DNA of 57,897 nt, from positions 1 to 57,897 of the IMG/VR virus record IMGVR_UViG_3300045781_000130. One strand, 5' to 3'. This document shows positions 1,079 to 57,897 of this stretch, piece by piece. Made by a program: the position numbers and the translations under genes. Every line of letters starts with the position of its first letter. Position 1 is the stretch's first letter. Source of the stretch: a virus (lineage: Duplodnaviria; Caudoviricetes). Below the pieces are notes generated by a model, which was not told the origin of the DNA, did no database searches, and saw only the letters and a list, made by a program, of their open reading frames with translations.

Positions 1079-1116
1079 TGGCTGTAACCGCTCCCTGAAA
1101 TCCCCGAGGAATTAAT

Positions 1117-3030: not shown

Positions 3031-3033
3031 GGC
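3019..3033 (+). repeat. 15-bp direct repeat ACCGGCGGCTGAGGC, copy 1
   Basis: Identical to 4438-4452; both copies span a gene end encoding TGG-stop. Confidence 0.85.
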
Positions 3034-3054
3034 AATTCAGAAGGAGGCAGTATC

Positions 3055-4449: not shown

Positions 4450-4452
4450 GGC
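4438..4452 (+). repeat. 15-bp direct repeat ACCGGCGGCTGAGGC, copy 2
   Basis: Identical to 3019-3033. Confidence 0.85.
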
Positions 4453-4510
4453 CTCCATGCGGATCGTTCCGATTCTCGCGAGACTGGCAACTAGTAAAAG
4501 GAAATCTTCA

Positions 4511-5989
4511 ATGAAAATCCTCAAGATTGCATCTTTCCTCAGTCTCCTTGGAACCCTTCCTTGCGAGGCTCAGACCGCCCGCAGTGGGATGCTCGGGTAT
4601 AACACTACCACGTTTACCAACTGTGGTACAAATTGTATTACCGGTACCCAGTTGAATATCTGGAACTCCACTCTTGTAAACTCTGCGGGATTCCTTCAGG
4701 ATAATAATACCTGGACTGGGAGAAATGTTTTTAATAACACCCTCCAAGGGGCCATCAATCTTGCCCCATCCGCACCTCCCAGTACTCCTGCGAATGGAGA
4801 TCTTTGGGCAACGGGAACGGGGATTTTTGCTCAGATTGGTGGGGTAAGTCATAATTTGTTAGGCGGCGGGGGAACTGTGGCGTCCGGCTCCCTCGTTTAT
4901 ACGTTTACCACCGGAGACAACACGACGGCATTGCAGGCGGCAGTTACGCTTGCCGAAAATAACGGGCAGTCTCTTGAACTGGTCGGGAATGGCTCGTTTA
5001 CCGGAACGATCAGTATTAACAGTTCGCTGTGGATACATGGGCAAAGTCGTGATCAGACTTTCGCATCGGCAAGCACGACTGGAATAGCTTTTGCAGTAAA
5101 CGCCGATCACGTTATTTTTAGCGACTTTTTGATTAACAACACGTCAGGCGGAACCACTCAGGAGATGATTAAATTTGCCACTAGTACTACTCTTTATCAA
5201 TGGTCCATCGTTGAAAGGATGTCTTTCGCGTCGCCGGGCCTCGCGGCTGTTGATACGGGCGGTAGTAATGGCATCACGATCCGAGAAAACTTGTTTGCTG
5301 GCGTAAATAGCATTACATTGCCAACTAATATGATCATTGCTCGCGCGACCAATACTTATCAATGCAACGGCGGCGAAAATATGATATATGATAATTACTT
5401 TATTGGTACGTTTGGCAATAATCAAACCGGAATCAGTACCGGCTGCATCGGCGGTTTGTATATCCGGAGTAACAAATTTGTAAATGTTGACAATCCTATC
5501 ATCATGTATGCTCCGACTGGTATTGCATCTGGTGACTTAATGATCCAGGACAATTCCATCGAACAATTTGCCGGAACTGCGATCCAGCTTAATTTTGCGG
5601 GCGGGACCGGGAGTTTCGAGAATATCCATATTCAAAACAACGAAATAAAGTTCCCACTTTCCGCTTCAATCGGTGGCGTCATTGAAATATTGACAACTGG
5701 AGGGGCCAGTTGGGCTTATGATATTCTAATTGAAGGCAACACCATTGGCGGGTTCACGTCGGGCTCGAACGTACTTATCAACATGACTACCGGCGCTGGA
5801 GTCGATATTTCGCACAACTCTATGCATAATTTCACATCTGGCATCGGGGGCAATATCACTCAAGCACTTAATATCGGGACGGCTGTCAGTTCTTGTACAA
5901 TTGGCCCCAATATAGTTTTGGGTGTCGGCGGTGCATGGACACCAAGTTACATAGGGCCTACTTGCACTCCTTTGGTTGCGCCTTACTGA
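4511..5989 (+). CDS. Tailspike-like beta-helix protein with a signal peptide
   Basis: MKILKIASFLSLLGTLPCEA|Q; DNTTALQAAV start of the helix and IxxNxI rungs; N-terminal CxxxCITG module shared with the 57498 ORF. Confidence 0.65.
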   Translation: MKILKIASFLSLLGTLPCEAQTARSGMLGYNTTTFTNCGTNCITGTQLNIWNSTLVNSAGFLQDNNTWTGRNVFNNTLQGAINLAPSAPPSTPANGDLWATGTGIFAQIGGVSHNLLGGGGTVASGSLVYTFTTGDNTTALQAAVTLAENNGQSLELVGNGSFTGTISINSSLWIHGQSRDQTFASASTTGIAFAVNADHVIFSDFLINNTSGGTTQEMIKFATSTTLYQWSIVERMSFASPGLAAVDTGGSNGITIRENLFAGVNSITLPTNMIIARATNTYQCNGGENMIYDNYFIGTFGNNQTGISTGCIGGLYIRSNKFVNVDNPIIMYAPTGIASGDLMIQDNSIEQFAGTAIQLNFAGGTGSFENIHIQNNEIKFPLSASIGGVIEILTTGGASWAYDILIEGNTIGGFTSGSNVLINMTTGAGVDISHNSMHNFTSGIGGNITQALNIGTAVSSCTIGPNIVLGVGGAWTPSYIGPTCTPLVAPY

Positions 5990-6137: not shown

Positions 6138-7016
6138 ATGGCTCCGCAGTTTATCCCAGTGGATTATGATCCTTTCGAGAAAGAAAAAGCAACTTCTGGT
6201 TTTTCACAAGAATCCACTTTACAAGCATATAATCCTTCTTGGAGAGATAAACTTGGGGGTTGGTTATATGACCAGACGAGTCATTCTCCTATTGCTCGTC
6301 AAATGGTATCAGGTTTAATTGGGTCTACTGGACTTGGTAATCAAGGTATGAATATTCTTGATTTTGTTCCCGGCGTCGGGCAAGTGCTCGCCGGGCAGGA
6401 AGCGGCGAACAATGGGGATTATAAGGGTGCTGCACTCGCTGCGGTCCCGATTCCCGGTGCCGCGCCGCTCGCCTCCGATGCGTCTGCGCTCGCAAGGTCA
6501 TTCACGCCAAAGCAGTTCGCGCAGGCGGCGGCGAATTACGGCGGAGGCCATGCTGTCGCGGCGAATGTGATGCTCCGTGACGGGCCGGAAGCGCTTGCCG
6601 CACAATACGGCCACATGGGCAAGCGCTATCCTGCGCAGGTGCAAAAGACCATCGATGCGATGGATCAAATGGCCGCACCGCTGGAAAGCGATGTGACGCT
6701 TTATCGGTCCATGCCTGTCGATCCCGGTGTGGCTGTTGGCGACGTGGTGCATGATCCGGGCTTCATGTCCACCGCGCGCACGTCTGGAACGCCGGGCGCA
6801 TTGGCTCAAGATCGTGGCGAGCATCTTGTGACGATTACGGCACCACAAGGGTCGCCGGCGGTTGATCTGAACGGAGCCTGGGGCGCGGGCGAACGCAACG
6901 AGGTTGTCCTTCCTCGCGGGAGCCGGTTGCAATTCACGTCGGTCGATCACGCGAATAAGCGGGCTAAGGCGACGCTGTTGCCATCGGGTGCTGATATGGG
7001 TGCACCGACGCAATAA
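6138..7016 (+). CDS. ADP-ribosyltransferase (R-S-E / VIP2-Alt-like C-terminal domain)
   Basis: TLYRS, GFMSTA and NEVVLPRG motifs; N-terminal FIPVDYDPF motif. Confidence 0.75.
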   Translation: MAPQFIPVDYDPFEKEKATSGFSQESTLQAYNPSWRDKLGGWLYDQTSHSPIARQMVSGLIGSTGLGNQGMNILDFVPGVGQVLAGQEAANNGDYKGAALAAVPIPGAAPLASDASALARSFTPKQFAQAAANYGGGHAVAANVMLRDGPEALAAQYGHMGKRYPAQVQKTIDAMDQMAAPLESDVTLYRSMPVDPGVAVGDVVHDPGFMSTARTSGTPGALAQDRGEHLVTITAPQGSPAVDLNGAWGAGERNEVVLPRGSRLQFTSVDHANKRAKATLLPSGADMGAPTQ

Positions 7017-8284: not shown

Positions 8285-9511
8285 ATGGCGAATCAATTAC
8301 TGACTATCAACATGATCACTCGCGAAGCGATTCGCCTGTGGAAGAATACGAACTCATTCATCCAGCATCTGGACACGCAATATGACGATCAGTACGCTCG
8401 AAGCGGCGCGAAAATCGGCACGGCTCTTCGTATCCGTCTGCCGGCTGATTTCACTGTTCGTACTGGTGCAGCTGCGTCTCCTCAGGACACTGCGGAAGTC
8501 AGCACGACCCTGACCCTTGCGACTCAGAAGGGTGTGGATGTCAGCTATTCCTCGGTAGATCGCACGATGGCCTTGGATGATTTCTCCAAGCGCACCCTTG
8601 CTCCAATGGTCAATCGCCTGGTCGGTGCGGTAGCCGTGGATGTGATGACTGGCGTGGATAACGGTGGCTGCGCGAATTTCACTGCCAACCTCGATGCAGC
8701 GGGCAATGTGCTGAATCCTCGCGCTCAGGACATTCTCAATGCCAAGGCTATTCTGACCATCAACTCCGCCCCCAGCGACAATCGCAAGTTCGTTGCGGAC
8801 CCGCTCACCATGTCTCGCATGGTTGGTTCTCTTGCTGGTCTCCTGAATCCCTCCACCAAGATCGGCAGCCAGTATGAGTCCGGTGAGATCCAGCAGGGCC
8901 TTGGCTTTGACTGGATGGAGGACCAAACGGTCATCAAGCACACGACTGGCGCCTATACTGCCATGACGGTCAATGGTGCAGGTCAGACTGGCTTGAATCT
9001 TACTGTCAATGTCATGACGGGGCCGTTGGCGGTTGGTGATATCATCCAGGTTGCTGGTGTCAACGCCGTGAACCGTATTACCAAGCAGAGCACTGGTCAG
9101 GCTCGTCAGTTCGTTGTCACGGCGAATGTGGCGACGGGTTCTACTGTGATCCCGATCTATCCTGCGATTCTGCCCTTTACCCTCCTCAACGGTGTACTGA
9201 CGGAAGTTCAGTATCAGACCACGGATACTTCTCCAGCGAACAGCGCAGCCATCACGGTCGTCACCCCCTCGGCCAGTGTCTATCGCAAGAACCTGGCTTT
9301 TATCCCTGAGGCCATCACGCTCGCCACGGCGGACTTGGAACTCCCCAAGGGTGTGCATGAAGCGGCAAGAGAGCAATACGATGGGACCTCCATGAGGATG
9401 ATCTCCGCCTACAATATCATGACGGATCAGTTCATCACCAGGTTGGACGTACTTTACGGCTTCCTCTACATTCGTCCTGAGTGGGTCGTTGCCGTCGGTG
9501 ACGCGATCTAA
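8285..9511 (+). CDS. Major capsid protein, P22 gp5-like
   Basis: MANQLLTINMITREA, GAKIGTALRIRLP, RLDVLYG..IRPEW. Confidence 0.92.
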   Translation: MANQLLTINMITREAIRLWKNTNSFIQHLDTQYDDQYARSGAKIGTALRIRLPADFTVRTGAAASPQDTAEVSTTLTLATQKGVDVSYSSVDRTMALDDFSKRTLAPMVNRLVGAVAVDVMTGVDNGGCANFTANLDAAGNVLNPRAQDILNAKAILTINSAPSDNRKFVADPLTMSRMVGSLAGLLNPSTKIGSQYESGEIQQGLGFDWMEDQTVIKHTTGAYTAMTVNGAGQTGLNLTVNVMTGPLAVGDIIQVAGVNAVNRITKQSTGQARQFVVTANVATGSTVIPIYPAILPFTLLNGVLTEVQYQTTDTSPANSAAITVVTPSASVYRKNLAFIPEAITLATADLELPKGVHEAAREQYDGTSMRMISAYNIMTDQFITRLDVLYGFLYIRPEWVVAVGDAI

Positions 9512-9517
9512 TAACTA

Positions 9518-9544
9518 AAGGAGGGGATAACCCCCTCCCTTTTT
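9518..9544 (+). terminator. Intrinsic terminator after the capsid gene
   Basis: GGAGGGG/CCCCTCC hairpin followed by a T-run. Confidence 0.75.
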
Positions 9545-9556
9545 CAGGAGCAGACA

Positions 9557-9892
9557 ATGAGCAAATTCAGGGCAGTTATTTTCGAGGACATGGAATTTCC
9601 TCCTTACGTATTTCGGGAGTACCCGAAGGTCATCGGATACGACCCAGCGGGGAACCCTATTACTGTGGCGAGTGCTGCAGAGGAACTTTCTTATGCGGAT
9701 AGGATCTCCTCCGGTGATGTGAAAATTGCCAAGGAAGAAGCTCTTGCTGCGGAGAAAAATCTCCTCGCAGCGAAGAATGATGAACTGCAGGATAAAGTGG
9801 CGGCGCTGGAAGCGAAATTGGCTGCCTTGGCTACCAAGGAACCCCCGAAACCTGAGGTGAGTCTGGCAAGCCTCACTGCAAAGTCCAAGTAA
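9557..9892 (+). CDS. Hypothetical virion-associated protein
   Basis: EYPK motif plus coiled coil; RBS AGGAG. Confidence 0.65.
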   Translation: MSKFRAVIFEDMEFPPYVFREYPKVIGYDPAGNPITVASAAEELSYADRISSGDVKIAKEEALAAEKNLLAAKNDELQDKVAALEAKLAALATKEPPKPEVSLASLTAKSK

Positions 9893-9904
9893 AGGTTCTG
9901 CCCC

Positions 9905-10681
9905 ATGACCACGCCACTGGATATTATTACCCAAGCTTTGAAAGAAGTTGGCGCGCTTGGTCAGGGGCAGACTGCCGCTCCTGTTGACGTGAATGATGCT
10001 TTTTTGAAGCTTAACTGGATGCTTAGCCAGTGGCAGCGAAAAAGGTATCTTGTATATCATTTGGTGGAACTCTCTTTTGTTTGTACTGGGGCGCAAAGTT
10101 ATTCCATCGGGCAAGGGGGGAATTTTTCTTACTCTGCCGGGGATTTTAATTCAGATTTTAATTCAGATTTTTCGGGAGGAGGAGGGGCACTCGCAGCTAC
10201 CAATCGCCCTGCGAAGATTGAGTCAGCGTTTGTCCGCCAACTTTCTGGAATGGTGGATTACCCACTGACTATGATTAGCTCCAAAGAGGACTACGATCAC
10301 ATCGCTTTAAAAACTTTGTCATCTTGGCCCTCTCATTTGTACTATGATGCTGCGTGGCCGATTGGATGGTTATACCCTTGGCCAGTTCCATTGGCAAATA
10401 TTTACGAGCTGCATGTCACTATTGTCGCTCAACTTAGTCAATTCAACTCACTAACCCAAATTATCTCTTTGCCGCCGGAGTATTTTGCTGCGATATTTTA
10501 TAATCTCGCGGTAAGGCTCTATCCCTCGTACACGACTCAGCCAAACCCTATCACCATAGCAATGGCGAAGGATTCTCTTAATGTGCTGAGAATGAGTAAT
10601 TCTCGCATAGCTAATCTCCGGATGCCTGTTGATCTGGTGCGCCCGGGAGTCTACAACCCATACTCAGATCAAGTGAGGTAA
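9905..10681 (+). CDS. Head-tail adaptor, P22 gp4-like
   Basis: MTTPLDIITQALKEVG..LNWMLSQW, LPPEY..YNLAVRL; gene position; contains a GDFNSDFNSDF insert. Confidence 0.7.
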   Translation: MTTPLDIITQALKEVGALGQGQTAAPVDVNDAFLKLNWMLSQWQRKRYLVYHLVELSFVCTGAQSYSIGQGGNFSYSAGDFNSDFNSDFSGGGGALAATNRPAKIESAFVRQLSGMVDYPLTMISSKEDYDHIALKTLSSWPSHLYYDAAWPIGWLYPWPVPLANIYELHVTIVAQLSQFNSLTQIISLPPEYFAAIFYNLAVRLYPSYTTQPNPITIAMAKDSLNVLRMSNSRIANLRMPVDLVRPGVYNPYSDQVR

Positions 10682-11076: not shown

Positions 11077-12513
11077 ATGGCAATGAAAAGGATTCAGCTT
11101 CTTGGTGGAGCTTATGTAACGAAGGGCCTCATTGCTGATGCCCAGCGTTGCGTAAACTTGTTCCCAGAAAAGAATCCGCAAGATGCAGAGGCCCCGGTGA
11201 CGCACTACCCTACACCGGGGCTAACTCTTATCGTGCCTGGGCCTAGCCAGGCCCCAGTGCGAGGGCTTTATTTTGCGAATAATAATAAACTTTATGCTGT
11301 GATTGGTGACAGTGTTTATTATATCGACGTGAATTATGTTATCCATCTCTTAGGGACAATCCCGTTTAACTTCAGTATGGTCTCTTTTGTGGACAATGGG
11401 ACTACGTTGGTACTGGTCGTAGGATCGACGACTGGGTATGAGATAACCCTCGCCACAGATGCTTTTGCTCAAATAACTGATCCTAATTTCTTTGGCGGAG
11501 ATAAAGTCGATTACATTGACACTTTTTTGGTGAGTAATATCACAGGGACACAGAGTTTTATCTCCTCCCTTTCTAACTCAGTTTCCTGGGATGCACTTTA
11601 TATCGCGAATAAAACTGCATCGGCAGACTTGCTTGTGACGCTTGTAGTGGTCCATAGGGAAATTTGGCTGTTTGGGGAGTTCACCAGCGAAGTTTGGTAT
11701 GACGCAGGAAATGCTGGATTTCCTTTCGCCCTTGTCCCTGGAGTAATGATCCAACACGGTTGTGCTGCGGTATACTCGGTACAAGCAAATGCTCAGGCAT
11801 GTTACTGGTTGTCGCAGGATAAGAATGGCAAAGCTTTTGTCATGAAAGGTCAGGCTTATCAGGCCGCTCCAATTTCCACTCCAGCTATAGTGCAGGAGTT
11901 TTCCAAATATGCTACAATCTCTGACGCGATTGCTTATATGTATCAGCAAGATGGTCATATTTTCTATGTTTTGAATTTTCCAACTGCGGATAAAACTTGG
12001 GTTTATGATCTTACCGCAGATACGTGGCATCAGAGAGTCTGGAGAGACTCTGATGGGGAGGAGCATAGGCATAGAGCGCAGTGCCATGTGTATGCTTATG
12101 GGAAAAATATTGTCGGAGATTGGGAGAATGGAAATATTTATATTCTCGATCAAACAGTCTACACTGATAATGGAGTAACGATTGAACGCAGAAGAAGTAT
12201 GCCACATATCTCCTCCAATGGGAAGAGAGTTGCTCATGCACAGTTTATTGCGGATATTGAGACTGGGGAGTATCAACCAGTGAACGCTGGTGATCCAGAT
12301 CCATTGATTTCACTTCGTTGGAGTGATGATAGAGGGAAATCCTGGGGGAATCCCGTTACCATGCCCCTCGGTACTTTGGGGCAGTTTCTCACTCAGCCTT
12401 CATGGAGGAGGCTTGGAATTACACGAGACCGAGTGTATGAGATTTTTTGGGATGTGCCAGGGCCATGTGCACTAAACGGGGCTTGGCTTGATGCAACGGA
12501 ACTTGGTACATGA
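11077..12513 (+). CDS. Tail hub / DNA stabilisation protein, P22 gp10-like
   Basis: QRCVNLFPE, PTPGL, GCAA, YQQDGHIFYVL, SDDRGKSWGN. Confidence 0.85.
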   Translation: MAMKRIQLLGGAYVTKGLIADAQRCVNLFPEKNPQDAEAPVTHYPTPGLTLIVPGPSQAPVRGLYFANNNKLYAVIGDSVYYIDVNYVIHLLGTIPFNFSMVSFVDNGTTLVLVVGSTTGYEITLATDAFAQITDPNFFGGDKVDYIDTFLVSNITGTQSFISSLSNSVSWDALYIANKTASADLLVTLVVVHREIWLFGEFTSEVWYDAGNAGFPFALVPGVMIQHGCAAVYSVQANAQACYWLSQDKNGKAFVMKGQAYQAAPISTPAIVQEFSKYATISDAIAYMYQQDGHIFYVLNFPTADKTWVYDLTADTWHQRVWRDSDGEEHRHRAQCHVYAYGKNIVGDWENGNIYILDQTVYTDNGVTIERRRSMPHISSNGKRVAHAQFIADIETGEYQPVNAGDPDPLISLRWSDDRGKSWGNPVTMPLGTLGQFLTQPSWRRLGITRDRVYEIFWDVPGPCALNGAWLDATELGT

Positions 12514-12821: not shown

Positions 12822-13274
12822 ATGTCGATCGTGTTTCAGGAAGAAGGCTGGGAGGCCTTTTACAAAGATTGTCAAGACTTATGGAAACTTCATTATCAAG
12901 AGATCGCTTCGGACAAGGAAAGAAAAAAACTTTCTGCTGACACCACCCGTTTTCAAAGTCTCGAAGCGTGTGGTCAGTTATATATCTTGACTGCAAGAAA
13001 AGATGGAGTCATGGTAGGTTACGTGGTCGCAGCTATTTGCTACCATCCCCATTTCTCTGAGATTCTGTGTGCTTTCGAGGATATGTATTTTCTAGCTCCG
13101 GGAAGCCGTGGAGCTAGAGTGGGGATGAGAATGGTTAAGAGAGCCTTGACTGGTATGAAAGCTCGCGGAGCGCAGATGGCTTTCTTCCACACCAAGGATT
13201 ACAAAAATAATGGAAGGCTGCTCACAGCATGTGGGCTAGGATTGAGTGACCATATTCACTCTGGCTGGCTGTAG
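12822..13274 (+). CDS. GNAT-family acetyltransferase-like protein
   Basis: MVGYVV, DMYFLAPGSRGARVG motif A; typical position before the ejection genes. Confidence 0.7.
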   Translation: MSIVFQEEGWEAFYKDCQDLWKLHYQEIASDKERKKLSADTTRFQSLEACGQLYILTARKDGVMVGYVVAAICYHPHFSEILCAFEDMYFLAPGSRGARVGMRMVKRALTGMKARGAQMAFFHTKDYKNNGRLLTACGLGLSDHIHSGWL

Positions 13275-13283
13275 GAGTCACTC

Positions 13284-14039
13284 ATGGGCATCGGTGCGAT
13301 TATTGGAGGGGTAAGTGCCCTCGGTGGGAGTTTGATTAACTCCAATGCTTCGCAGCAGGCTTCGCAGGCGCAAGTTCAAGCGCAGCAACAAGCCCTGGCC
13401 CTGCAGCAAAAGATGTTTAATACTGATCAGGCGAATTTGGCGCCTTACATGGCGCAGGGGCAATTTGCTCAAAGTCAGTTGAATGCGAGGCTTCCTGCAC
13501 TTACTGCGCAGTTCAACCCCTCAGATCTGCAAAACACCCCTGGGTATCAGTTTACCTTGGGGCAAGGGCTCCAGGCAACGCAGAATGGCTTTGCAGCTCA
13601 GGGACTGGGAAGTTCCGGGGCAGCGATCAAAGGGGCAGGACAGTACGCGACGGGTCTGGCCCAGTCCACTTATAATCAGCAATTGCAGAATTATCTTGCC
13701 CAGAACCAACAAACCTACAACATGCTTGCAGGGCAACAGGGGGTTGGGTTAAATGCTGCGACTGGGCTTGGATCTCTTGGGAACGCTTTGACTGGACAGT
13801 CGAGTAACTCCCTTACCAATATGGGCAATGCCCAGGCCTCAGGAATACTTGGCAGTGCCAATGCACTCTCCGGAGGTCTAACTAGCGGAGCAAATTCTCT
13901 CGCCCAGTACAACATGCTGAACCAACTTCAAGGGAATGGAAGTTTGTTTAGCAATCTCGCTGGGTATAATACTTCCTTGGCGAACTTACCAAATACCATC
14001 AGCATTGGCGCTTTTGGCAACAACAGTATCTTCGGTTGA
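13284..14039 (+). CDS. DNA ejection protein (gp7-like)
   Basis: Gly/Ala/Gln-rich, hydrophobic N-terminus, TPGYQF, SGAAIK. Confidence 0.75.
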   Translation: MGIGAIIGGVSALGGSLINSNASQQASQAQVQAQQQALALQQKMFNTDQANLAPYMAQGQFAQSQLNARLPALTAQFNPSDLQNTPGYQFTLGQGLQATQNGFAAQGLGSSGAAIKGAGQYATGLAQSTYNQQLQNYLAQNQQTYNMLAGQQGVGLNAATGLGSLGNALTGQSSNSLTNMGNAQASGILGSANALSGGLTSGANSLAQYNMLNQLQGNGSLFSNLAGYNTSLANLPNTISIGAFGNNSIFG

Positions 14040-14049
14040 GGAGTGAATA

Positions 14050-15537
14050 ATGGCTGACGTCCCGGCTCCCCAGTATCCACAGCAAGCTCCTCAGCAGGAC
14101 AATCCTCTTGCTGCAATGGGGCAGGCTGTTAATGTCGCCCAGGGCAGCATGAATATCATGCAGCAGCATATGATGCTGCAAGGCAAGATGGCGCTTGGGC
14201 CGATTATGCAGCAAGCGGTAGACCCTCAGACTGGGCACTTGGATTATGACAAAGCTTTTGTGCTTATGAGTGCGGACCCTAGGACCGCTTTCATGGCTCC
14301 GGATTTCCTTGCCCAGGGAGTGCAGAAGCGGCTTACTGAGACTCAGACTGCGGGGGCTATGCTTGATACTCATTTGAAAGCTCAAAAGGTTGTTGGAAAT
14401 GAATTAGCTGGATTGCTTGCTGAGGGCGCGCAGAATGGAAATTCTATTGATCCCGCGAAAGTCAGCGCAGCTGCTATGTCTATAGCTCGTGGTCCTTATG
14501 GAAATATTCTTTTTCCTAATGGGGCTCAAGATGTAATGAAAATGATTCCCTCTGTGCCGAAGGATGGGAAAAGCGTTTACAACCTAGTGCAACAAATGGC
14601 CCTGCGCGCGGCTGGAAGTGAAAAATCTTTGGAGGAGGTTAATAACCATCTTCTGACGATTAATAAAGGCGGGCAGCAAGAAATTCATAATGTCGGACTT
14701 GGCCAGGATAGGATCCAAGGGACTATTATAAATACTCCGACTGTGGAGCAAAGAAACACTCCAGTTACCACCCTCAACGCCAAAGGTGGAGAGCAGATTA
14801 CTCCTCGTGGAGCGACTCTGGGCCTTCCGATGCTGGACGGGGCTGGCCAACCAATTCAAGGCTCAGGTGCTCCCGGTGCTGCTCCACCCGGTGGGGCACC
14901 TGCGGGGATGGAGGGGAATCCTCCCTCCCCTCCATCCCCACCCACTACAAAACTTGGGCCAGTGGAGCAAGGGTTGCTGCAGGAAGATGTGGATTTTAAT
15001 AAGAGTAAACAGAAGGATCTTAGTGAGGCTGTAGCCCACGCGACGCAGATGAAATTGAACTTGCAGGAAGCTGCCTTGACTTTGAAAGATATAAAACCCG
15101 GTCCTGGCGGTTCTATGCGTCAGTCGATTGGGCAGTTTCTGGCTGCTGCTGGAGCGGACAAGGATGTTGTGGATGGGGTCTCTAATGGATCTCTTTCAGC
15201 TTCGCAAGAATTTGCCAAACTTATGCTGCAAATCGCGACCAGTAATATGGCGTCGCAGCTTAAAGGTGGCGGGCGGTTTACGAACGCGGAGTTTGAGAGT
15301 TTTATCAAGGCCAACCCGAACCTTGACATGGACCCTCAGGCTATCCAAAAAATGCTCGCATTCTACAATCGCCAGGCGAACCTTACGTTCGCTGAGAACG
15401 ATGATTATAAGAACTACAGAAACGCAGCTCGCAAAGACCCAAATTTGCACCTGCAGGACTACGACGCGCACTGGCAGCAGCAGTTGTTGAAGCATGGTAT
15501 TCTCAAGCCCAACCCTGATTTTGCTAGTAGGGGATGA
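14050..15537 (+). CDS. DNA ejection protein (gp20-like)
   Basis: Gene position; helical Gln/Ala-rich sequence. Confidence 0.6.
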   Translation: MADVPAPQYPQQAPQQDNPLAAMGQAVNVAQGSMNIMQQHMMLQGKMALGPIMQQAVDPQTGHLDYDKAFVLMSADPRTAFMAPDFLAQGVQKRLTETQTAGAMLDTHLKAQKVVGNELAGLLAEGAQNGNSIDPAKVSAAAMSIARGPYGNILFPNGAQDVMKMIPSVPKDGKSVYNLVQQMALRAAGSEKSLEEVNNHLLTINKGGQQEIHNVGLGQDRIQGTIINTPTVEQRNTPVTTLNAKGGEQITPRGATLGLPMLDGAGQPIQGSGAPGAAPPGGAPAGMEGNPPSPPSPPTTKLGPVEQGLLQEDVDFNKSKQKDLSEAVAHATQMKLNLQEAALTLKDIKPGPGGSMRQSIGQFLAAAGADKDVVDGVSNGSLSASQEFAKLMLQIATSNMASQLKGGGRFTNAEFESFIKANPNLDMDPQAIQKMLAFYNRQANLTFAENDDYKNYRNAARKDPNLHLQDYDAHWQQQLLKHGILKPNPDFASRG

Positions 15538-15541
15538 AATA

Positions 15542-18088
15542 ATGGAAAACTACCAGCAAGCCCTCCTTGATGCCATTGCTGCGCCTGAGTCCAAAGGTCA
15601 GTATAATATCCGGTATGGTGGACCTGACGGCTCGAAGTATTTCACTGGTTATGACGATCATCCGAGGATTAAAGAAAAAACTGGAGATAAGACCTCTGAC
15701 GCAGCGGGACGGTATCAGTTTCTTAGCAGCACCTGGGATGGGCTTGGTGGTGGAGCTTTTACGCCAGCTAACCAGGATATGCGTGCTTGGCAGTTGGCGG
15801 ACAGAGACTATCGGGCGAGGACAGGGCAGGATCTGGCTACGGTGTTGCAGTCTAAGGGACTGACCAAAGATGTGCTTAATACCCTTGCGCCAACCTGGAC
15901 TGGTCTCGGGACTGATCCAAATAGTGCTCTTGCAGCGTACAATGCTACGCTGCAGGGCAAACCTATTGTTCCTAACTCTGGTGGAGTTGAGGGAGAGGGA
16001 AACCCACCTTCCATGGAACTCTCCTACAACCCTTCCTCCTCTGCAAAATCTGCATTGCAGAAATACGGCCTGATTGAAGGGGCACTGGGAGACCTCCCAC
16101 AAATTACCGGAAGCAAGGCATCTCTCCCTGGGGATGATCTCTCTCAACACGCCGCGCAGGTTCTTGGGAACTATGGCCTGATTCCCCAGAGCATCAATGG
16201 GGTTAACCCTGACCCTATGAAAACTGGGGGAGCCTATGACTCTCAAGGCCACCTGGTAGTCGGTGGGGCTCCTTTCACGCAGAATGCTGACTGGGGCCTC
16301 GGCCAGATGGGGGCGAATGGCGTACTAGCTGGGCTTGGAGCCAAAGCCGCGGCGCTTGCAAAACTCGCGCAGTTGAGACTCTCTGGCCAAACTCTCCCTG
16401 ATAATGCCTATGACCAACTGGTAAGTGCTGGGCAAGGGGCCAGAAAACAAGAACTTGCTGCCCATCCTATCGCCGCGCCCCTCGCGGAGGCGGCAGGAAC
16501 TGTGGTGCCAACGGTAGCTGCTGGACTGGGCGCCGGGGCGGTGGCAAGGGGAGTGGGAGGGGTAGCGACGCGCCTGGCGGCCCCTACGGCAAAAGCAGTT
16601 GCTGATGGAACTTTAGCTGCGGATGCAAGTTTAGCTGCGCGAGTTGCGCCAAAAGTCGCGCCTACCCTCAATGCCGCAGGGGAATTCCTTGGTGGGACTG
16701 CTGGTGGACCTGCGTCCTCGTTTGGGTTTCCAGCAGGTGGCATTGGTTGGGGAAATGCCATTCTTAGCAATGCATCTAGGGGCGTTTCGGGGGCGGTACA
16801 AGGCGATTTAGCCGGACATGTGCTAGGGGGGTTGCAAGACCCTAATGACCCTATGAACGCCGCTTTGGGCGCGGGCGCAAACATGCTCCTTGGTCCTCTT
16901 GGCTCCAAGGTTATCTCCCCATTCCGCGCCGCTGTAACTCCAGAAACCCGCGATGTAGCGAATAGGCTTATCGGGCAAGGAGTGGATGTTAGGGGTGGGC
17001 AGATTGCATCCTCCCCGGCGATTAAAGCTTTGGACTCCGCGAATGTTTCCCCAGAACTCAAGCAGCAACAACTGGAGTCCTTGACTCGAGCCGCAGGAGC
17101 TCAAATTAATGCTGATACTGTAATGGATGGTTTAGGTACAAAAGGTTTCACGCCAGATGTACTGAAAAAAGTCAACGGAGATATTGGAGCAGAATTTAAT
17201 AATATTGCTGCTCACACAAAAATAGATTTGACTGCTCCAGATGCAAATGGGCAAAGTATTTACAATAAACTTGATGATATGAAAAAACGTGTTTTAAGTG
17301 GGTCTGTTGATGATTCAGAGTCTAAAAAAATTCTTAAAGCCATAGATCAAATTGAAACGCAGGGGCTTATCAACAATCACCAAATTGATGGAGATACATA
17401 TCAATTCCTCACTAAAGAGGAAGGGCCAGTCAAACAATTAAGAGATGATAATAACTCTTGGGTACAGGGTTATGGTAAAAAACTTCATGGTATGCTTATT
17501 GATGGATTGGATGCTAGTTCTCCTCCAGAATATAAAGGAGCTATTTCTGACGTCAGATCTAGATATATGAAACTGCAAATGATTGAAGATGCTATGAAAG
17601 GTGGGGCAAACTCAGGACTGGTAGACCCAGTAAAGCTCAAGAGTGCGATTTATAGAGCTTATGGAGACTTCCCGCCACCTGACCTTGATGCTCTCGCCCG
17701 TGCAGCTAACCTTGGGTTTTCGCGCCCAGCACTCGAATCTGGAATTAAGGAAGGGGCAAAGCCTTCGCCAGGATTGTGGGCTAGTCTCACCTCCCATGCT
17801 GGACCTGCAGGAGTTGGAGCTGGCGCGGCAATGCTTGGGGATCACTTTGGTCCTCATTTTCTTTCCGCTATAGCAGACAATCCACTTGCTGCAGGAATAC
17901 CTATCGGTGGCGCAGCATTAAATGTTGGCATGAATATGCTTGCAAATGGAGTACGGAGCAAAGTGATGCAGTCTCCAGGATACACCAATTTTCTTCTTGG
18001 AGGGGGCAAAGTCCCTCCTCTCCCAAATCCCCTTATCGGTCCTGCCACGCAACTTCGGAGTGACATCTATGCCCCGCCTCGTAAATAA
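15542..18088 (+). CDS. Large ejection protein with an N-terminal lambda-type lysozyme domain
   Basis: LDAIAAPES, YNIRYGG, HPR, AAGRYQFLSSTW, FTPANQD, WTGL. Confidence 0.75.
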   Translation: MENYQQALLDAIAAPESKGQYNIRYGGPDGSKYFTGYDDHPRIKEKTGDKTSDAAGRYQFLSSTWDGLGGGAFTPANQDMRAWQLADRDYRARTGQDLATVLQSKGLTKDVLNTLAPTWTGLGTDPNSALAAYNATLQGKPIVPNSGGVEGEGNPPSMELSYNPSSSAKSALQKYGLIEGALGDLPQITGSKASLPGDDLSQHAAQVLGNYGLIPQSINGVNPDPMKTGGAYDSQGHLVVGGAPFTQNADWGLGQMGANGVLAGLGAKAAALAKLAQLRLSGQTLPDNAYDQLVSAGQGARKQELAAHPIAAPLAEAAGTVVPTVAAGLGAGAVARGVGGVATRLAAPTAKAVADGTLAADASLAARVAPKVAPTLNAAGEFLGGTAGGPASSFGFPAGGIGWGNAILSNASRGVSGAVQGDLAGHVLGGLQDPNDPMNAALGAGANMLLGPLGSKVISPFRAAVTPETRDVANRLIGQGVDVRGGQIASSPAIKALDSANVSPELKQQQLESLTRAAGAQINADTVMDGLGTKGFTPDVLKKVNGDIGAEFNNIAAHTKIDLTAPDANGQSIYNKLDDMKKRVLSGSVDDSESKKILKAIDQIETQGLINNHQIDGDTYQFLTKEEGPVKQLRDDNNSWVQGYGKKLHGMLIDGLDASSPPEYKGAISDVRSRYMKLQMIEDAMKGGANSGLVDPVKLKSAIYRAYGDFPPPDLDALARAANLGFSRPALESGIKEGAKPSPGLWASLTSHAGPAGVGAGAAMLGDHFGPHFLSAIADNPLAAGIPIGGAALNVGMNMLANGVRSKVMQSPGYTNFLLGGGKVPPLPNPLIGPATQLRSDIYAPPRK

Positions 18089-19355
18089 ATGTCTAGGTAT
18101 CCTGGTTGGACTCTGTCTTGCAGTAAGTGCTCATGCTGCCACACTTCTCCCGAATGGGAAGCAGGTCTTTTTCAATGGGAATGGTCAGCCTCTTTCTGGA
18201 GGGAAAGTAACTTTTTACATCCCCTCTACCACGACGTACAAAACTACCTGGCAAGACTCCAGTGGTACCATTCCCAATTCCAACCCCGTGGTGCTGGATT
18301 CCAATGGCTCTGCCATTATTTATGGTTCAGGAATTTACCGAGAGGTTGTGACTGATGCTCTTGGGAATTTAATTTGGGATCAGCTTACTGCTGATACTTC
18401 CCAGGGTACCGAGTCTTATTCCTGGGGAGGACTTTCTGCTGGGACTCCAAATGCCCAGACAGTCAGTGTTGCAACATTTTCCTCCACTGCAGGGCAGATC
18501 ATAGCTTTTAAAGCTTATGCCTCTAATACTGGAGCATTTACCCTCAAGCCTTCGGTCCTGGGTGCAATCGCAGTTTACAAAGATACCTCTGCCGGGCCAG
18601 TACCTCTTTCTGGCGGGGAGATTATAGCTGGCAATACGGTGCAACTTATCTATGATGCAAGTCTTAGTGGTTTTCACCTTGTTAATTATCCGTCAGGTTC
18701 GCAGTCTTTTCTTTCTATAAATGCTGCAGCTATTACCGATCTAGGAACTGTAGGGAGTTCTAATGTTTATATAACTGGAACAAGTACTGTTTGGGGTTTT
18801 GGCTCAAGTGCTTCTACTACTTCTCCTGTGTATAGGATCTTAATGCAGGGAGTGGTTACGCTGATGAACAGCACTAACCTTAGCCTCCCTGGTGGAGGAT
18901 ATATTATCACCCAAGCTGGTGATAGTTTTGTAGCTGTGTATACTGGAAGTGGAACTTGGCAAGTGACTTCTTACACCCGCCAGGCGGATACCCCATTTGT
19001 CCCTTCTGGAGCTGTGATGGCTTTTAATCTTGCGTCCTGCCCAGCTGGATGGAGTGCTGCAAATGGAAGTGGAGGGACAGTGAACTTGGTTGGGTATTTT
19101 ATTCGTGGGCTAGATGCCACAGGCGCAGTGGACCCAACGCCAAGGGCACTCGGGAGTGTGGAAGCTCATGCATTGCAGGATCACTCGCATAGTATCTCAC
19201 CTAGTTCTGTCCTGGTTAGTGGAGGATCTTATCTTGGGGGAGGTTCGATTGGATTTAGCCCCGGAACAATCAGTGTCGGTAATATGCACACAGGTAATGC
19301 CGCCTCTGAAACTCGGCCAGTCAATGTGGCCTTGCTTTACTGTCAGAAAAACTAA
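18069..19355 (+). CDS. Tail fibre (anchor domain plus tail collar) with a signal peptide
   Basis: RBS GGAG; MPRLVNKCLGILVGLCLAVSAHA|ATLLPNGKQ..NGQPLSGGKV..NPVVLDSNG; collar motifs VPSGAVMAF..PAGW..GYFIRG..ETRPVNVALLYC. Confidence 0.8.
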   Translation: MPRLVNKCLGILVGLCLAVSAHAATLLPNGKQVFFNGNGQPLSGGKVTFYIPSTTTYKTTWQDSSGTIPNSNPVVLDSNGSAIIYGSGIYREVVTDALGNLIWDQLTADTSQGTESYSWGGLSAGTPNAQTVSVATFSSTAGQIIAFKAYASNTGAFTLKPSVLGAIAVYKDTSAGPVPLSGGEIIAGNTVQLIYDASLSGFHLVNYPSGSQSFLSINAAAITDLGTVGSSNVYITGTSTVWGFGSSASTTSPVYRILMQGVVTLMNSTNLSLPGGGYIITQAGDSFVAVYTGSGTWQVTSYTRQADTPFVPSGAVMAFNLASCPAGWSAANGSGGTVNLVGYFIRGLDATGAVDPTPRALGSVEAHALQDHSHSISPSSVLVSGGSYLGGGSIGFSPGTISVGNMHTGNAASETRPVNVALLYCQKN

Positions 19356-19366
19356 AGGAGACTAAC

Positions 19367-19597
19367 ATGTCGAATATTAGTAATGCCTTGCTCTCGTATG
19401 CTCTGCCCTGGGCGCTGGCGAGATTGAATGATAGGAATACCTGGGTGACCTGGATTGTGGCAGCTGCTGCACATTTTGGTGGAGTTATCAACCCGGAGTT
19501 CAATACACTCCTTGTGAATGTGGCGACAGGCATTGTGGTCATCATTGGCTACGCATATCAGGGTAAGCCGATTTTTACTGGAAAGGGCGTAAAATGA
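19367..19597 (+). CDS. Holin-like membrane protein
   Basis: ARLNDRNTW followed by hydrophobic segments; basic C-terminus. Confidence 0.5.
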   Translation: MSNISNALLSYALPWALARLNDRNTWVTWIVAAAAHFGGVINPEFNTLLVNVATGIVVIIGYAYQGKPIFTGKGVK

Positions 19598-20088
19598 CGA
19601 TCACTTCTTGGTTTCATTCCATCGAGACTAATGTCGGCCTGGTCCATGTGGACATTAATGCAGTGATTGGGAAACTGATCTCTGGGATCGAACTCGTGGG
19701 GCATGAAATTGATGCCCTGCTGAAATGGGGAGTCTCTCAATCCGCGAATATCGAGGCGGGGTTGAATGCTGCGGCGCCGGTTATTGCTGCGGTAGCTGGG
19801 CTGGCGACGACTGCCGCGACAGGGAATCCTGGTGCGGGACTTGTGGTTAATCGGGCGATTAATGGAGTGGACGCTGCATTCACCGCGGCAGAGGCCTCAG
19901 TAAAACTGCTTAATGCCGCTAAAGTCTCTCTTGCGGAGACAGGAGGAGGAACGGTTGCGAATGACACTGCAGCGATTGTGGCGGCGGTTCACGCGATCAC
20001 CACAGCGAACTCCCAGGTCGCTAATGTCTCCACAGCGGCACTTAATGCTGCCCAGGCAATTCAGGCTTTGATTCCTCCGAAAGCTTAA
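19594..20088 (+). CDS. Hypothetical Ala-rich protein
   Basis: ATGA overlap with the upstream gene. Confidence 0.55.
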   Translation: MTITSWFHSIETNVGLVHVDINAVIGKLISGIELVGHEIDALLKWGVSQSANIEAGLNAAAPVIAAVAGLATTAATGNPGAGLVVNRAINGVDAAFTAAEASVKLLNAAKVSLAETGGGTVANDTAAIVAAVHAITTANSQVANVSTAALNAAQAIQALIPPKA

Positions 20089-20093
20089 AGGTC

Positions 20094-20435
20094 ATGGAAA
20101 TGCCTCCTTTCTCAATCGACCTGACAGTGATCTATGACGTGTCAATGATCGGAGCAGTAGTTTGTAGCCTGGCTGGGACTATCTTTTACACTAGGTTTCG
20201 GTCAGAAAAAGCTGAAGAACTCGCAAAGCAGGCGAAGGCGGAGGTTGTAGAGCTTGGTGTGGAGCTGACTACTTTCCGAATACACGCAGCACAAAACTAT
20301 GTGACGAGCGAAACGCTTGGGAGGATAGAGGGGAGACTTGGTGAAATGGGGCAGGAGATGCGAGCGGATATTAAGGATATAAAGGACACGATTATATCCG
20401 CGCTAGCGTCCCTTGCAATGGGGAAGAAAGACTAA
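20094..20435 (+). CDS. TM plus coiled-coil protein (lysis accessory-like)
   Basis: One TM segment followed by a coiled coil; YVT..L.RIE. Confidence 0.5.
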   Translation: MEMPPFSIDLTVIYDVSMIGAVVCSLAGTIFYTRFRSEKAEELAKQAKAEVVELGVELTTFRIHAAQNYVTSETLGRIEGRLGEMGQEMRADIKDIKDTIISALASLAMGKKD

Positions 20436-20511: not shown

Positions 20512-22782
20512 TCATTCCTGCCCATGAGTATTCTTCGGGGTTGGCATGTAGGTTTTTGTTCCCGCGTGTCTTATCATCATATTACTCCTCTCCGCAATTT
20601 CGAGAATACGGTTGATTTTCTCCGAGGGAACTTTGCCTGTGAGAAAGTGGACTAGCATCCCTTCGTGGAGTGGTTTTTTATTCTTCGCATAGGCTTGCCA
20701 CATGAAGAAGTGCAGTTCTTGTAGGACCAAGAGATCGCTTTTCCCAGACATCTCTCGGAAAATATCTGGCATTACTTGTTCTGCTCCTAGGAGCCAATCC
20801 TTAGCCCGAGTAACATCTTCCAATGTAACTCGCATAGTTGGCCCTCTTGACATTGCAGATATAGCGCAGAGTTTGAGAGTGTGTAGAATACGACGAGGAA
20901 TATAATGAGCAAGCTTGCTATGTTCAGGCACAGGCTCACAGCCGCCGTAAGCCCAGTCCTCAATTGCGTGCTCAGCTTCTTCGTCCCAAGATAATTGACC
21001 ATAACGCTCTCCCATGTTTGCAAGACCTTTAGCGAGGGAGCTGAAAAGTTCCTCTCGCTTTTCTTTTTTGGGTCCGAATAGGCGAATTTTCGGGCCGGTG
21101 CAGGAGTACACCATTATAAGACGGGAGGTAAACCCCATTGTCCAAGCTTCTTCGGGGAGAAGAGAAGCAAGAAACCCCGGCTGTGTCCCTGCAAGGATTG
21201 TTAGTTGAGGGCAGGGGATATCGACGACTCTCGACATTGTCCTGCGCTCTTCACGATACCTCCTAGGATTATCGAATACGAAATTGAGCACGGAAAAGAA
21301 TTCCAGATCGTGGGCCGGTACCAAAACTCCAAGTTCCCCGCAAGGGACCAGAAGTGAATGATATTCCAAGAGGTTTGCCCCGTTGTTAAGGGGCTTTTTT
21401 GTTGCGGCTTTTTCAAGTGAGTCAATGAGTGCCGCCTTGGTGACGTTGTTTGGGGAGATATGGAAACAATCTGCAGCTACCCAGAGTTCTTCGACAGGAT
21501 TTATCGCGATAGTGTTGTGAATGACTGTGAAGTCATCAAGAAGGAACTGATGATCTCCATCAACAATGATACCATGCCATTTTCCTAGTCTTGAGGGTTT
21601 TATTGTAAACCCAGTATTATTTACGTTTTTTATTTGTCTACGTGGATGAGCTTTTTTCCTATGGATTTTGCAAGGAATTACCTGACACTCTCCACTGATA
21701 GAAACTCTCCAATATAAATTGGATACATCTCCACAAGATTTCATAGATGAAGTTATGTAGGCTGCAAGCCCTAATGATCTACACAAGAACGCTACATCAG
21801 TGCTAAGTTGTTTACTTTTACTGATAAAGTCATAACAACCATACTTAGCAAGATAACATCCATCTGTGTCAATAAGTCCAGCAAGAACTTGTCTCCTTGT
21901 CTCATATGATCCATATTTTATAAACTCAGGAATAGATTTATCTCCACATTTGTCTGTGAGTCCATAACTTCTAAGTTTATCTAGGAGATGATTTTTCGTC
22001 CATTGCCCTTCTTTTGTGTAAGAAGTTAGTCCATAGCGATTACCAGCACCTGAGACATTCAAACCCCATTTTTCGGCTACAGTATGACAAACTTGTGCTA
22101 TTTCATAGTCCTCTGTGGTTATAAAGATAGATTTTCTTTCTATTAAACTATCTCCATCACCAAGTAAGACTCCAATAAAATATGGGTCTACTTCAGGTTC
22201 ATCTCTATAAGAAAATTCTTTTACTCCTGTTCTCCAGAGCTTCCATTCACTCTTTTTAAAAGCAGGCCAAGTTAGCCATTCATTCACAGTTACATGGAGA
22301 ATAGAACCTTGGTTAGGCTTCCTGCTTTTGCGAAGGGAAAGAATATGTTCTCCATTACATTCCCAAGAGCGCCCTTTGGTAGGAGTTACTTTGTAGAGTT
22401 GCCCCTCTCCTGGTGCGGTCTTAAGAACTTGTCGCTGAGTTCCATCTGGTCCAATGAGTAAATCCCCTTCTTTTACTGTTTCTACAGGAACAGCTTTCCC
22501 ATCATAGGTGAGTACTAATTCACCATAACTCAAGCACTTGCCAATGCCTGGCGGTGCAACCAAGAGTGTGAAAAGGTTGGGGTAGAGTTGGGACTGTGCA
22601 GTTTCGATCCAGACTCGGCGTTCCAGAGCTCCAGATACGGCTGTGATTGCAGACCAGAGGCGAAAGATTTCTGGCGTCGGAGACCCCTGGGTGTACTCCA
22701 TGAAATTTGAGATCCAATCACCCTCTACAGCGTCCTTGAAAGCAGGCTGGTCCTCGTGCGCGTGTCGGGCTTGCCCTTCCAT
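20512..22782 (-). CDS. DUF3987-like P-loop helicase containing an intein
   Basis: LYPNLFTLLVAPPGIGK|T Walker A split by the intein; GFTSRLI. Confidence 0.7.
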   Translation of the reverse strand: MEGQARHAHEDQPAFKDAVEGDWISNFMEYTQGSPTPEIFRLWSAITAVSGALERRVWIETAQSQLYPNLFTLLVAPPGIGKCLSYGELVLTYDGKAVPVETVKEGDLLIGPDGTQRQVLKTAPGEGQLYKVTPTKGRSWECNGEHILSLRKSRKPNQGSILHVTVNEWLTWPAFKKSEWKLWRTGVKEFSYRDEPEVDPYFIGVLLGDGDSLIERKSIFITTEDYEIAQVCHTVAEKWGLNVSGAGNRYGLTSYTKEGQWTKNHLLDKLRSYGLTDKCGDKSIPEFIKYGSYETRRQVLAGLIDTDGCYLAKYGCYDFISKSKQLSTDVAFLCRSLGLAAYITSSMKSCGDVSNLYWRVSISGECQVIPCKIHRKKAHPRRQIKNVNNTGFTIKPSRLGKWHGIIVDGDHQFLLDDFTVIHNTIAINPVEELWVAADCFHISPNNVTKAALIDSLEKAATKKPLNNGANLLEYHSLLVPCGELGVLVPAHDLEFFSVLNFVFDNPRRYREERRTMSRVVDIPCPQLTILAGTQPGFLASLLPEEAWTMGFTSRLIMVYSCTGPKIRLFGPKKEKREELFSSLAKGLANMGERYGQLSWDEEAEHAIEDWAYGGCEPVPEHSKLAHYIPRRILHTLKLCAISAMSRGPTMRVTLEDVTRAKDWLLGAEQVMPDIFREMSGKSDLLVLQELHFFMWQAYAKNKKPLHEGMLVHFLTGKVPSEKINRILEIAERSNMMIRHAGTKTYMPTPKNTHGQE
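21514..22536 (-). mobile_element. Intein with LAGLIDADG homing endonuclease (341 aa)
   Basis: Starts CLSYG, has block B CNGEH, YFIGVLLGDG and LAGLIDTDG, ends VIHN followed by Thr+1; AT-rich. Confidence 0.92.
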
Positions 22783-57497: not shown

Positions 57498-57897
57498 ATG
57501 AAAAGACTTTTTCTTCTTGGGCTCCTTTTTGCCTCTCCTTGCGAAGCTCAGGTCTCTAGGTCTGAGTTGACGAGTGACAATGTAGCGGTGTTTAAAAGCT
57601 GCGGGTCTGGTTGTATAACTGGACCTATGCTGCAAAACTGGAATAATTTAATCATCAATTCTGTTGGAGTACTTAAAGATAATAATATCTGGACTGGTAC
57701 CAATACTTTTCTTCAAGGATTGGTGGGCGACGGCTCGGCGCTGACGGTTTCGGGTCGCCCTCTCGGCAACGTCGAAACGGGATGGGCCGTCACGCCCTAT
57801 GAATATGGCGCGGTCGGCGCGGGCCATGACGCGGCGGCGATCAATGCGGCCATCGCGGCGGTATCGGTGGTTGGCGGGCGCGTCATCATCCCGAATC
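57498..57897 (+). CDS. 3'-truncated signal-peptide tailspike-like protein
   Basis: MKRLFLLGLLFASPCEA|Q..CGSGCITG..then ALTVSGRP..TPYEYGAVG; frame open to the window end. Confidence 0.75.
   Translation, partial: MKRLFLLGLLFASPCEAQVSRSELTSDNVAVFKSCGSGCITGPMLQNWNNLIINSVGVLKDNNIWTGTNTFLQGLVGDGSALTVSGRPLGNVETGWAVTPYEYGAVGAGHDAAAINAAIAAVSVVGGRVIIPN
57737..57897 (+). repeat. 161-bp repeat, copy 2
   Basis: Matches 1284-1444 in the same reading frame. Confidence 0.95.

Follow-up and report, generated by a model that had tools for sequence, protein, structure and literature searches.

The closest described relatives of the protein studied here are the hub-docking tailspikes P22 gp9 and Sf6 gp14 and the tailspikes of Pam1 and Pan3, which share one N-terminal fold and belong to the same P22-type portal, coat, hub and ejection module, with the fibre gene placed after the ejection genes. 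In P22 the tailspike is added last, in a separable step: heads without tailspikes persist as stable particles, and supplying them with tailspike in vitro makes them infectious. To our knowledge, tailed-phage particles are held to be built wholly in the cytoplasm. Here we describe a fibre gene of this class, the open reading frame (ORF) at 18069-19355 on the plus strand of the IMG/VR virus record IMGVR_UViG_3300045781_000130, whose full 57,897 bp were analysed and are called the window below. Compared with the P22-like tailspikes, a 23-residue Sec leader precedes the head-binding domain and a conserved pair of cysteines is present; compared with P22 and Sf6, where the distal part is a beta-helix, the rest of the protein is a beta-rich shaft followed by a T4-gp12/collar-like domain. 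By fold and context the protein belongs with the hub-docking tailspikes and fibres of the P22/Sf6/Pam1 class, and the export signal is its new element. In the literature searched, from which subscription journals were mostly absent, we found no account of a tailed-phage fibre or tailspike that carries a Sec leader.

Nearer relatives exist in cultured phages. The anchor domain is 48-58% identical in gp26 of Rhodoferax phage P26218, in an unannotated ORF of Pseudomonas phage PAE2 and in the 'bacteriolytic protein' of Ralstonia phage P4282, and in P26218 and PAE2 the fibre orthologue shares its genome with a homologous hub gene. The three orthologues differ from the fibre of the window in having no leader and other C-terminal domains. 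Secretion signals are known from phage proteins of other kinds. In filamentous phages the virion protein pIII, which binds the receptor, is made with a cleavable Sec signal and acquires its disulfides in the periplasm; Ff virions are extruded through the envelope, whereas here the particle is icosahedral, tailed and built in the cytoplasm. In the cultured Cellulophaga podovirus phi18:3 (Pachyviridae), gp085, gp086 and gp087 are virion or tail proteins in RefSeq 'based on experimental MS/MS proteomics analysis' (tandem mass spectrometry), and all three pass the crude rule of our own by which signal peptides were called throughout this work, while nine other MS/MS virion proteins fail it. Leader-bearing proteins can therefore reach the virions of tailed phages, cleavage left aside. 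These three proteins differ from the fibre in sequence (blastp E of at least 2.1; no match to the anchor-domain hidden Markov model, HMM) and, with 0, 1 and 3 cysteines respectively, carry no paired-cysteine signature. Late phage proteins that use Sec, according to the review PMC6116005, include the secreted endolysin Lys44 of fOg44, the signal-anchor-release (SAR) endolysins and the T4 antiholin RI, which likewise are made late and address host Sec by an N-terminal signal, and differ in being lysis proteins rather than virion parts.

An initial annotation, made from the sequence alone, had placed at this locus a podovirus tail fibre with a signal peptide in front of its virion-anchor domain. 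The ORF is found where it was claimed, running from ATG 18069 to TAA 19353-19355 and encoding 428 residues. A ribosome-binding site, read from the sequence as GGAG (18057..18060, plus strand), lies 8 nt before the ATG, and the ORF overlaps the preceding gene, for an 864-residue ejection protein, by 20 nt, from which the fibre and the last ejection gene are probably translationally coupled. That annotation had also named a start elsewhere as the outcome that would undo its reading, and no such start was found. Between codon 1 and codon 74 there is no in-frame ATG, GTG or TTG, and the sole upstream alternative, TTG 17997, lies 92 nt inside the preceding gene and is unsupported by the closest homologues, which start at the ATG position (P0002 with MTRLVNK, P0003-5 with MI(S/N)KFLA). 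Since no start codon lies in that interval, every product with the anchor domain must begin with the leader. The G+C content at third codon positions (GC3) is 0.30 in the leader, 0.37 in the whole fibre gene and 0.41 in the neighbouring tail genes, and by this composition the leader is native to the tail module and not a recent graft.

The leader (18069..18137, plus strand, 23 codons) divides into an n-region (18069-18089), an h-region (18090-18125) and a c-region (18126-18137). The n-region, MPRLVNK, carries two positive charges (R3 and K7) and no acidic residue. The h-region, CLGILVGLCLAV, consists of 12 uncharged hydrophobic residues, with a best 8-residue Kyte-Doolittle mean of 3.0. The c-region, SAHA, is followed by ATLLPNGKQ, in keeping with the -3/-1 rule (A-H-A before A). 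A lipobox is absent, the residues before Cys8 (N-K) and before Cys16 (G-L) being misfits, and so is a twin arginine. These are the features of a textbook type-I signal peptide, for which Sec export and a cut by signal peptidase I between AHA and A are predicted. Among related loci our rule was positive in 37 of 90 fibres compared with 45 of 693 other ORFs of at least 200 residues, so that the leader is more than a chance feature; among the 27 window ORFs of at least 200 residues, it was positive only for the fibre and for four ORFs of a secreted block at 95-5989.

The mature protein would begin with the head-binding, or virion-anchor, domain (residues 24-114; 18138..18410, plus strand). The family phrog_26190 matches residues 30-114 (E 3.9e-13), and a profile of 70 homologues (A3) gives weak but specific matches to the 'Tailspike head-binding domain' 7eeq_A (E 1.3e-4) and to the Pan3 tailspike chains 9vyg (E 8e-3). 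In an AlphaFold2 (AF2) model of the mature protein the mean predicted local distance difference test score (pLDDT) is 82, and about 90 in the anchor domain. The modelled domain superposes on Pam1 7eeq_A with a root-mean-square deviation of 1.9 A over 78 columns (32% identity, E 2.7e-4), on Pan3 (9vyg_o, E 4.7e-5; 9vyg_m, E 1e-4), and also on Sf6 gp14N (7sg7_A) and the head-binding domain of P22 gp9 (1lkt_A, 2vnl, 8tvr_A, 8u10, 8eb7); the probability is 1.00 for the fold matches to 7eeq_A, 9vyg, 7sg7_A, 1lkt_A and 8tvr_A. The entry 7EEQ is the tail machine of cyanophage Pam1, as given in PMC13730344. The virion-anchor assignment of the initial annotation is thereby borne out by fold as well as by profile. 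Across 98 sequences the domain has 7 invariant columns, and 27 across a closer set of 22, and in all six frames of the contig its HMM matches the fibre ORF only.

The anchor domain is followed by a beta-rich middle region (residues 115-314; 18411..19010, plus strand), which AF2 models as all-beta with pLDDT mostly above 90 and which is kept in homologues with 60-100% coverage. The C-terminal part (residues 315-428; 19011..19352, plus strand) is a collar-like, T4 gp12-like receptor-binding domain, assigned from PHROG and profile matches: phrog_1800 (E 1e-9) and phrog_523 (E 5.9e-8), both 'tail collar fiber protein', and the T4 short tail fibre gp12 (1pdi, E 4.8e-4; 1ocy, E 2.3e-3). phrog_327, 'tail protein', spans residues 237-427. 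The domain contains an HSH motif (19182-19190, plus strand) together with Cys324 (19038-19040) and Cys425 (19341-19343, both plus strand), beyond which the mature protein has no cysteine; pLDDT is low for mature residues 320-390 in this monomer model. Pfam gave no family on the fibre at E of 0.01 or below, PF07484 included, nor did NCBIfam, while homologues at 40-45% identity have PF07484 precomputed. Of the 'standard tail-collar domain' claimed earlier, a relation to collar domains has the support of the PHROG families and the T4 gp12 profile and the word standard has none, the sequence being divergent and outside the Pfam match; we call the domain collar-like and not a member of PF07484.

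The genomic setting is that of a podovirus fibre, as had been proposed. By gene content the phage is a P22-like podovirus, with a large terminase (PF04466), a P22-type portal (PF16510, E 8.5e-160) and coat (PF11651), and a scaffold gene. Upstream of the fibre lie a tail hub gene of the P22 gp10 type (11077..12513, plus strand; phrog_578, 'head closure Hc3', E 4.7e-106) and, directly before the fibre, three ejection genes (13284..18088, plus strand: 13284-14039, 14050-15537 and 15494-18088), the last of which overlaps the fibre start. From the P22 and Pam1 structures, the hub is the expected docking partner of the anchor domain. One ejection protein matches phrog_598, 'DNA ejection' (E 9.6e-26); the 864-residue one has a lysozyme/transglycosylase-like N-terminus (phrog_90, E 7e-13; PF06737 under the cut-off), and the middle gene, 14050-15537, is assigned by position. 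The usual fibre locus after the ejection genes, also part of the earlier proposal, recurs in the first scan of relatives: the order hub, ejection gene, fibre was found in 11 of 11 syntenic viral loci with the domain, and in 5 of the 11 the fetched stretch reaches the coat gene too.

To follow the leader across relatives we used two sets. A search of 5.8 billion proteins gave 176 relatives, of which the best 120 together with the query made a set of 121; a further 93 loci came from two scans of IMG/VR, a scan of genome contigs and the records of two named phages. In 65 of the 121 proteins a signal-peptide-like leader stands before the TLLPNG motif, in 45 the motif is preceded by the initiator Met and 0-4 residues, 4 are unclear and 7 are without the domain. 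The motif is followed by an insert in 9 of the 65 leader proteins. The anchor domain is present at 91 of the 93 loci, with a leader in 37, without one in 53, and cut by the contig end in 1. The background statement of the initial annotation, that related fibres begin directly with this domain, is thus true for 45 of 121 proteins, for 53 of 91 loci and for three cultured phages, Rhodoferax P26218 (MATLLPEG), Pseudomonas PAE2 (MTQLLPNG) and Ralstonia P4282 (MQLLQNAK); the uncultured record of the Manatee Spring podovirus genome is leaderless too. The genome-contig scan contributed two loci, in metagenome-assembled genomes labelled Iamiaceae and Beijerinckiaceae, too few for host mapping. A homologue from Methylobacterium persicinum (WP_238248717) lies in a provirus with the same virion module. 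The nearest cultured alphaproteobacterial relative by hub (39% identity) is the Acetobacter phage phiAX1 (LC644973.1, L104). In phiAX1 none of the ORFs annotated after the ejection genes is a fibre gene; an ORF with a signal-peptide-like start, PhiAX1_440 (9120-10085, 322 residues), lies between its adaptor and hub genes.

What is conserved in these leaders is the feature, not the sequence, and the position of its end. At the junction as homology alone defines it, with no signal-peptide rule applied, the -3/-1 rule is obeyed exactly in 46 of the 56 leader forms whose domain is uninterrupted and within 3 residues in all 56, and residue +1 is Ala in 43 of the 56. In the leaderless forms a small residue follows Met in 42 of 45 (A 27, T 5, S 4, P 3, G 2, V 1). 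A small residue in second place permits the initiator Met to be taken off. With or without a leader, the mature protein would then begin at one and the same residue, and this speaks for a cut at that position. In the window, the cut after AHA predicted earlier would leave ATLLPNG, the sequence that follows the initiator Met in leaderless orthologues.

Mapping the presence or absence of the leader on a tree, as the initial annotation had proposed, was done with the tail-hub protein (55 rows, 478 columns). On this tree the leader requires 4 changes, all forced by well-supported branches, compared with 18.6 for shuffled labels; the clade of 32 that includes the window has 27 leader and 5 leaderless members, and another clade is leaderless in 20 of 20. 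From this distribution the leader is an old and stable trait of one phage lineage. Contigs of this lineage with a complete or near-complete estimate measure 56-62 kb. Two leaderless members of the leader clade (L005 and L006) have upstream of the gene, at 9857-9997, a frame open for 47 codons with a weakly hydrophobic stretch, which may be a decayed leader and is too weak to use. The leader persists while the C-terminal domains are swapped. In one viral contig (L013, 6930-10873) seven tandem copies of a collar-like C-terminal domain, 35-44% identical to that of the window, may represent alternative fibre tips.

Cysteine content also separates the two forms. The mature part has an even, non-zero number of cysteines in 51 of 62 leader proteins (7 odd, 4 zero), compared with 17 of 45 leaderless ones (22 odd, 6 zero). 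When proteins and complete locus ORFs were pooled (99 leader, 95 leaderless) and clustered at 50% identity and 70% length, 32 leader clusters were even, 5 odd and 3 zero, versus 15, 38 and 7 leaderless clusters (Fisher p 3.7e-8). In the hub-tree set the count is even in 26 of 26 leader and in 7 of 25 leaderless fibres (17 odd, 1 zero). Around position 10 of the anchor domain, 22 of 99 leader sequences have a cysteine, versus 1 of 95 leaderless ones, with a partner at position 58 in 10 forms. The Cys324/Cys425 pair of the window is kept in 30 of 31 leader-bearing relatives of the C-terminal domain, down to 25% identity; both cysteines are lost together in one relative, and a leaderless relative has Ala and Cys. 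Parity and the kept pair fit the predicted formation of disulfides in the periplasm. Further, two metagenomic homologues (P0049 and P0053) have, in place of the type-I cut, an L-A-S-C box of the lipoprotein type, which a linker of about 16 residues separates from ATLLPNG. Such a box makes sense only outside the cytoplasm, and we count these variants for extracytoplasmic residence.

Together, these observations led us to a reading to which we give an even chance, in which export, cut, disulfide and docking are inferred: the ORF would encode the single hub-docking, receptor-binding fibre of the phage, made as a cleavable Sec precursor, exported, folded oxidatively and docked at the time of lysis. 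The fibre gene would be expressed late, coupled in translation to the last ejection gene. The Sec translocon would take the unfolded chain into the periplasm, where signal peptidase I would cut between AHA and A, leaving ATLLPNG as the N-terminus. There the fibre would trimerise, and the Cys324-Cys425 disulfide would form in the receptor-binding domain. Finished fibres would reach the heads, built in the cytoplasm, filled with DNA and bearing hubs, only once the inner membrane has been opened by the holin or by lysis, or else after release into the lysate. The late addition of the P22 tailspike makes such extracytoplasmic docking mechanically plausible.

The broader proposition, that a deep P22-like lineage completes its virions outside the cytoplasm through Sec export, signal peptidase trimming, Dsb oxidation and docking after the membrane is breached, we hold somewhat more tentatively, at a little below even chances. 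If it is true, a tailed phage would depend on host SecA/SecYEG, LepB and DsbA as assembly factors, and particles inside the cell would lack fibres up to the moment of lysis; a Pfam scan of 38 window ORFs named no phage-encoded signal peptidase or Dsb protein. A virion-docking fibre obligatorily made with a secretion signal, across a lineage and with paired cysteines, misfits assembly confined to the cytoplasm, and the route, if right, would add to the assembly of tailed phages an extracytoplasmic step not yet described. Should the virion carry the exported form, host secretion and disulfide machinery would determine phage infectivity, the last assembly step would be tied to lysis, disulfides would be available for fibre stability in soil or water, and a signal peptide could no longer serve in annotation as a criterion for excluding genes from the virion. 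Since the Methylobacterium provirus carries such a fibre, the question is testable in a cultivable host.

Several points weigh against export and late docking. Export, cleavage and the disulfide are predictions for this fibre, and the signal-peptide calls come from our crude rule, not from SignalP. During the brief period of lysis, or once diluted, exported fibres would still need to encounter heads, and we know of no tailed phage that does so. Large secreted proteins adjoin leaderless fibres as well (15 of 53 loci), and secretion nearby does not by itself make a virion part. A tree of the anchor domain (105 columns) is too poorly resolved for gains and losses to be counted, its best mapping of the leader taking 14 changes of which well-supported branches force 1. 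The cysteine signal weakens with the coarsest grouping: in clusters at 35% identity and 60% length the even to odd counts are 7:2 for leader and 8:22 for leaderless forms (p 0.015), and a phylogenetically independent test, underpowered with 4 pairs, gave about 3 in the predicted direction and 0 in the opposite one (median p 0.25). Cysteine parity may be in part a lineage effect, and the reading does not account for the surplus of odd counts in leaderless fibres. Finally, the contig is not closed, and a second fibre gene is possible in the missing stretch.

The alternative that survives best, though we consider it unlikely, is that the exported pool is not for virions. The leader would work and most of the protein would be exported, to bind receptors in soluble form in the envelope or the medium; it could block superinfection or prevent new particles from adhering to debris, and virions would use a minor unexported fraction. 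Phages do release free depolymerases or fibres, the window encodes further secreted, beta-helix-like proteins, and secreted proteins stand beside the fibre at 16 of the 37 loci with a leader and at 15 of the 53 without one. Against this, the gene has no second start codon from which a leaderless form could be made; an unexported precursor would keep the 23-residue hydrophobic extension on its docking domain, whereas relatives conserve the mature N-terminus down to the exact residue. The paired cysteines, some of which lie within the anchor domain, seem to be under selection, and this points to the exported form as the user of the anchor.

It is rather improbable that the leader serves as a membrane tether on the cytoplasmic side, or as a timing device, uncleaved or released late in the manner of SAR endolysins, and holds fibres until heads are ready. 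The h-region does contain two Gly and two Cys. It is strongly hydrophobic (mean 3.0), unlike the weakly hydrophobic SAR domains, and in 46 of 56 forms the c-region conforms at the junction to what signal peptidase requires, for which an uncleaved anchor would have no need; the bias to even cysteine numbers and the lipobox variants argue for residence outside the cytoplasm. That late phage proteins use atypical signals for timing is exemplified by the SAR endolysins and secreted Lys44 (PMC6116005).

Still less probable is that the gene encodes a secreted protein of host type (an adhesin, or a bacteriocin-like or MdpB-like collar protein) with a fossil anchor, the phage adsorbing by another protein. 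Signal-peptide proteins with collar domains are common in bacteria, and close homologues are named 'microcystin-dependent protein' by their sources. Bacterial secreted phage-like fibres exist, as the chimeric fibres of Bdellovibrio (PMC10769870) and WceF of Pantoea (PMC7949094) illustrate. An anchor that had become a fossil is hard to reconcile with its strong conservation (the 7 invariant columns in 98 sequences and 27 in the set of 22), or with its being in the contig's only gene for a head-binding domain. The gene is coupled to the ejection genes and resembles them in GC3 (0.37 versus 0.41), it occupies a conserved fibre slot in 11 of 11 syntenic loci, a deep clade of phages whose virion modules are intact has stably kept the leader, and the provirus with the Methylobacterium homologue has this module as well. 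An artefact, whether a wrong start codon or a chance hydrophobic N-terminus, is scarcely credible, since its one support, the general unreliability of start calls in metagenomic contigs, is set against the lack of an alternative start, a good GGAG, and independent gene calls in homologues that give the same architecture, which recurs in 37 of 91 loci.

Hub docking of an exported fibre, the reading we prefer, does not extend to the other exported proteins of the window. Signal-peptide starts were found in the ORFs at 57498-end, 1117-3030, 3055-4449 and 4457-5989, and in that at 2-1078 when read from an internal Met. They form a signal-bearing block of at least five ORFs (57498-57896 and 2-5989), some of them beta-helix-like, between the portal and scaffold genes. 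The initial annotation had taken the fibre as the best evidence that these proteins are real virion parts, and this is not supported: the anchor domain is absent from the block (HMM, six frames), GC3 in the ORFs at 2-4449 is 0.72-0.82 compared with 0.37-0.54 in neighbouring genes, and in the 4 relatives for which the sequence fetched covers the portal-scaffold gap, that gap has no signal-bearing ORF, a fifth stretch ending just past the portal. By these features the block looks like inserted cargo or a set of extra spikes, and its role cannot be told from the leader of the fibre. The first interpretation as a whole is therefore supported for the fibre and unsupported in its generalisation to the other secreted ORFs. 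An argument from the pairing of leader fibres with leader-bearing neighbours was dropped, the enrichment being weak (26 of 296 versus 19 of 397 ORFs) and secreted neighbours occurring in both classes; ten of the leader-bearing neighbour proteins gave no Pfam family.

The virus record is a single contig of 57,897 bp whose ends do not overlap. Its last 150 nt, 57748-57897, repeat the internal stretch 1295-1444 with 148 of 150 nt identical, a sequence common to two paralogous secreted ORFs. As the contig ends within this repeat, the record is probably unclosed, or alternatively assembled, at that point.

Other genes of the window were noted in passing. Directly 3' of the fibre, at 19367-20435, lie three small ORFs: the first, of 76 residues, has two or three hydrophobic stretches, the second (164 residues) is Ala-rich, and the third (113 residues) has a hydrophobic N-terminal stretch followed by a charged, helix-like region. 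They gave no family match, and no endolysin was recognised among the ORFs scanned; the three may be a lysis cassette. Between the hub and ejection genes, at 12822-13274, there is a GNAT acetyltransferase-like ORF (PF00583, E 3.3e-7), which is kept in several relatives. Just before the scaffold gene, an ORF of 292 residues without a signal peptide (6138-7016) contains a domain of the ADP-ribosyltransferase exoenzyme type (PF03496, E 7.5e-10, residues 200-275). The opposite strand encodes a family-A DNA polymerase, helicases and a methylase, and, at 20512-22782 (minus strand), a DUF3987-type replication protein which is split after its P-loop by an intein with Hint and LAGLIDADG homing-endonuclease domains.

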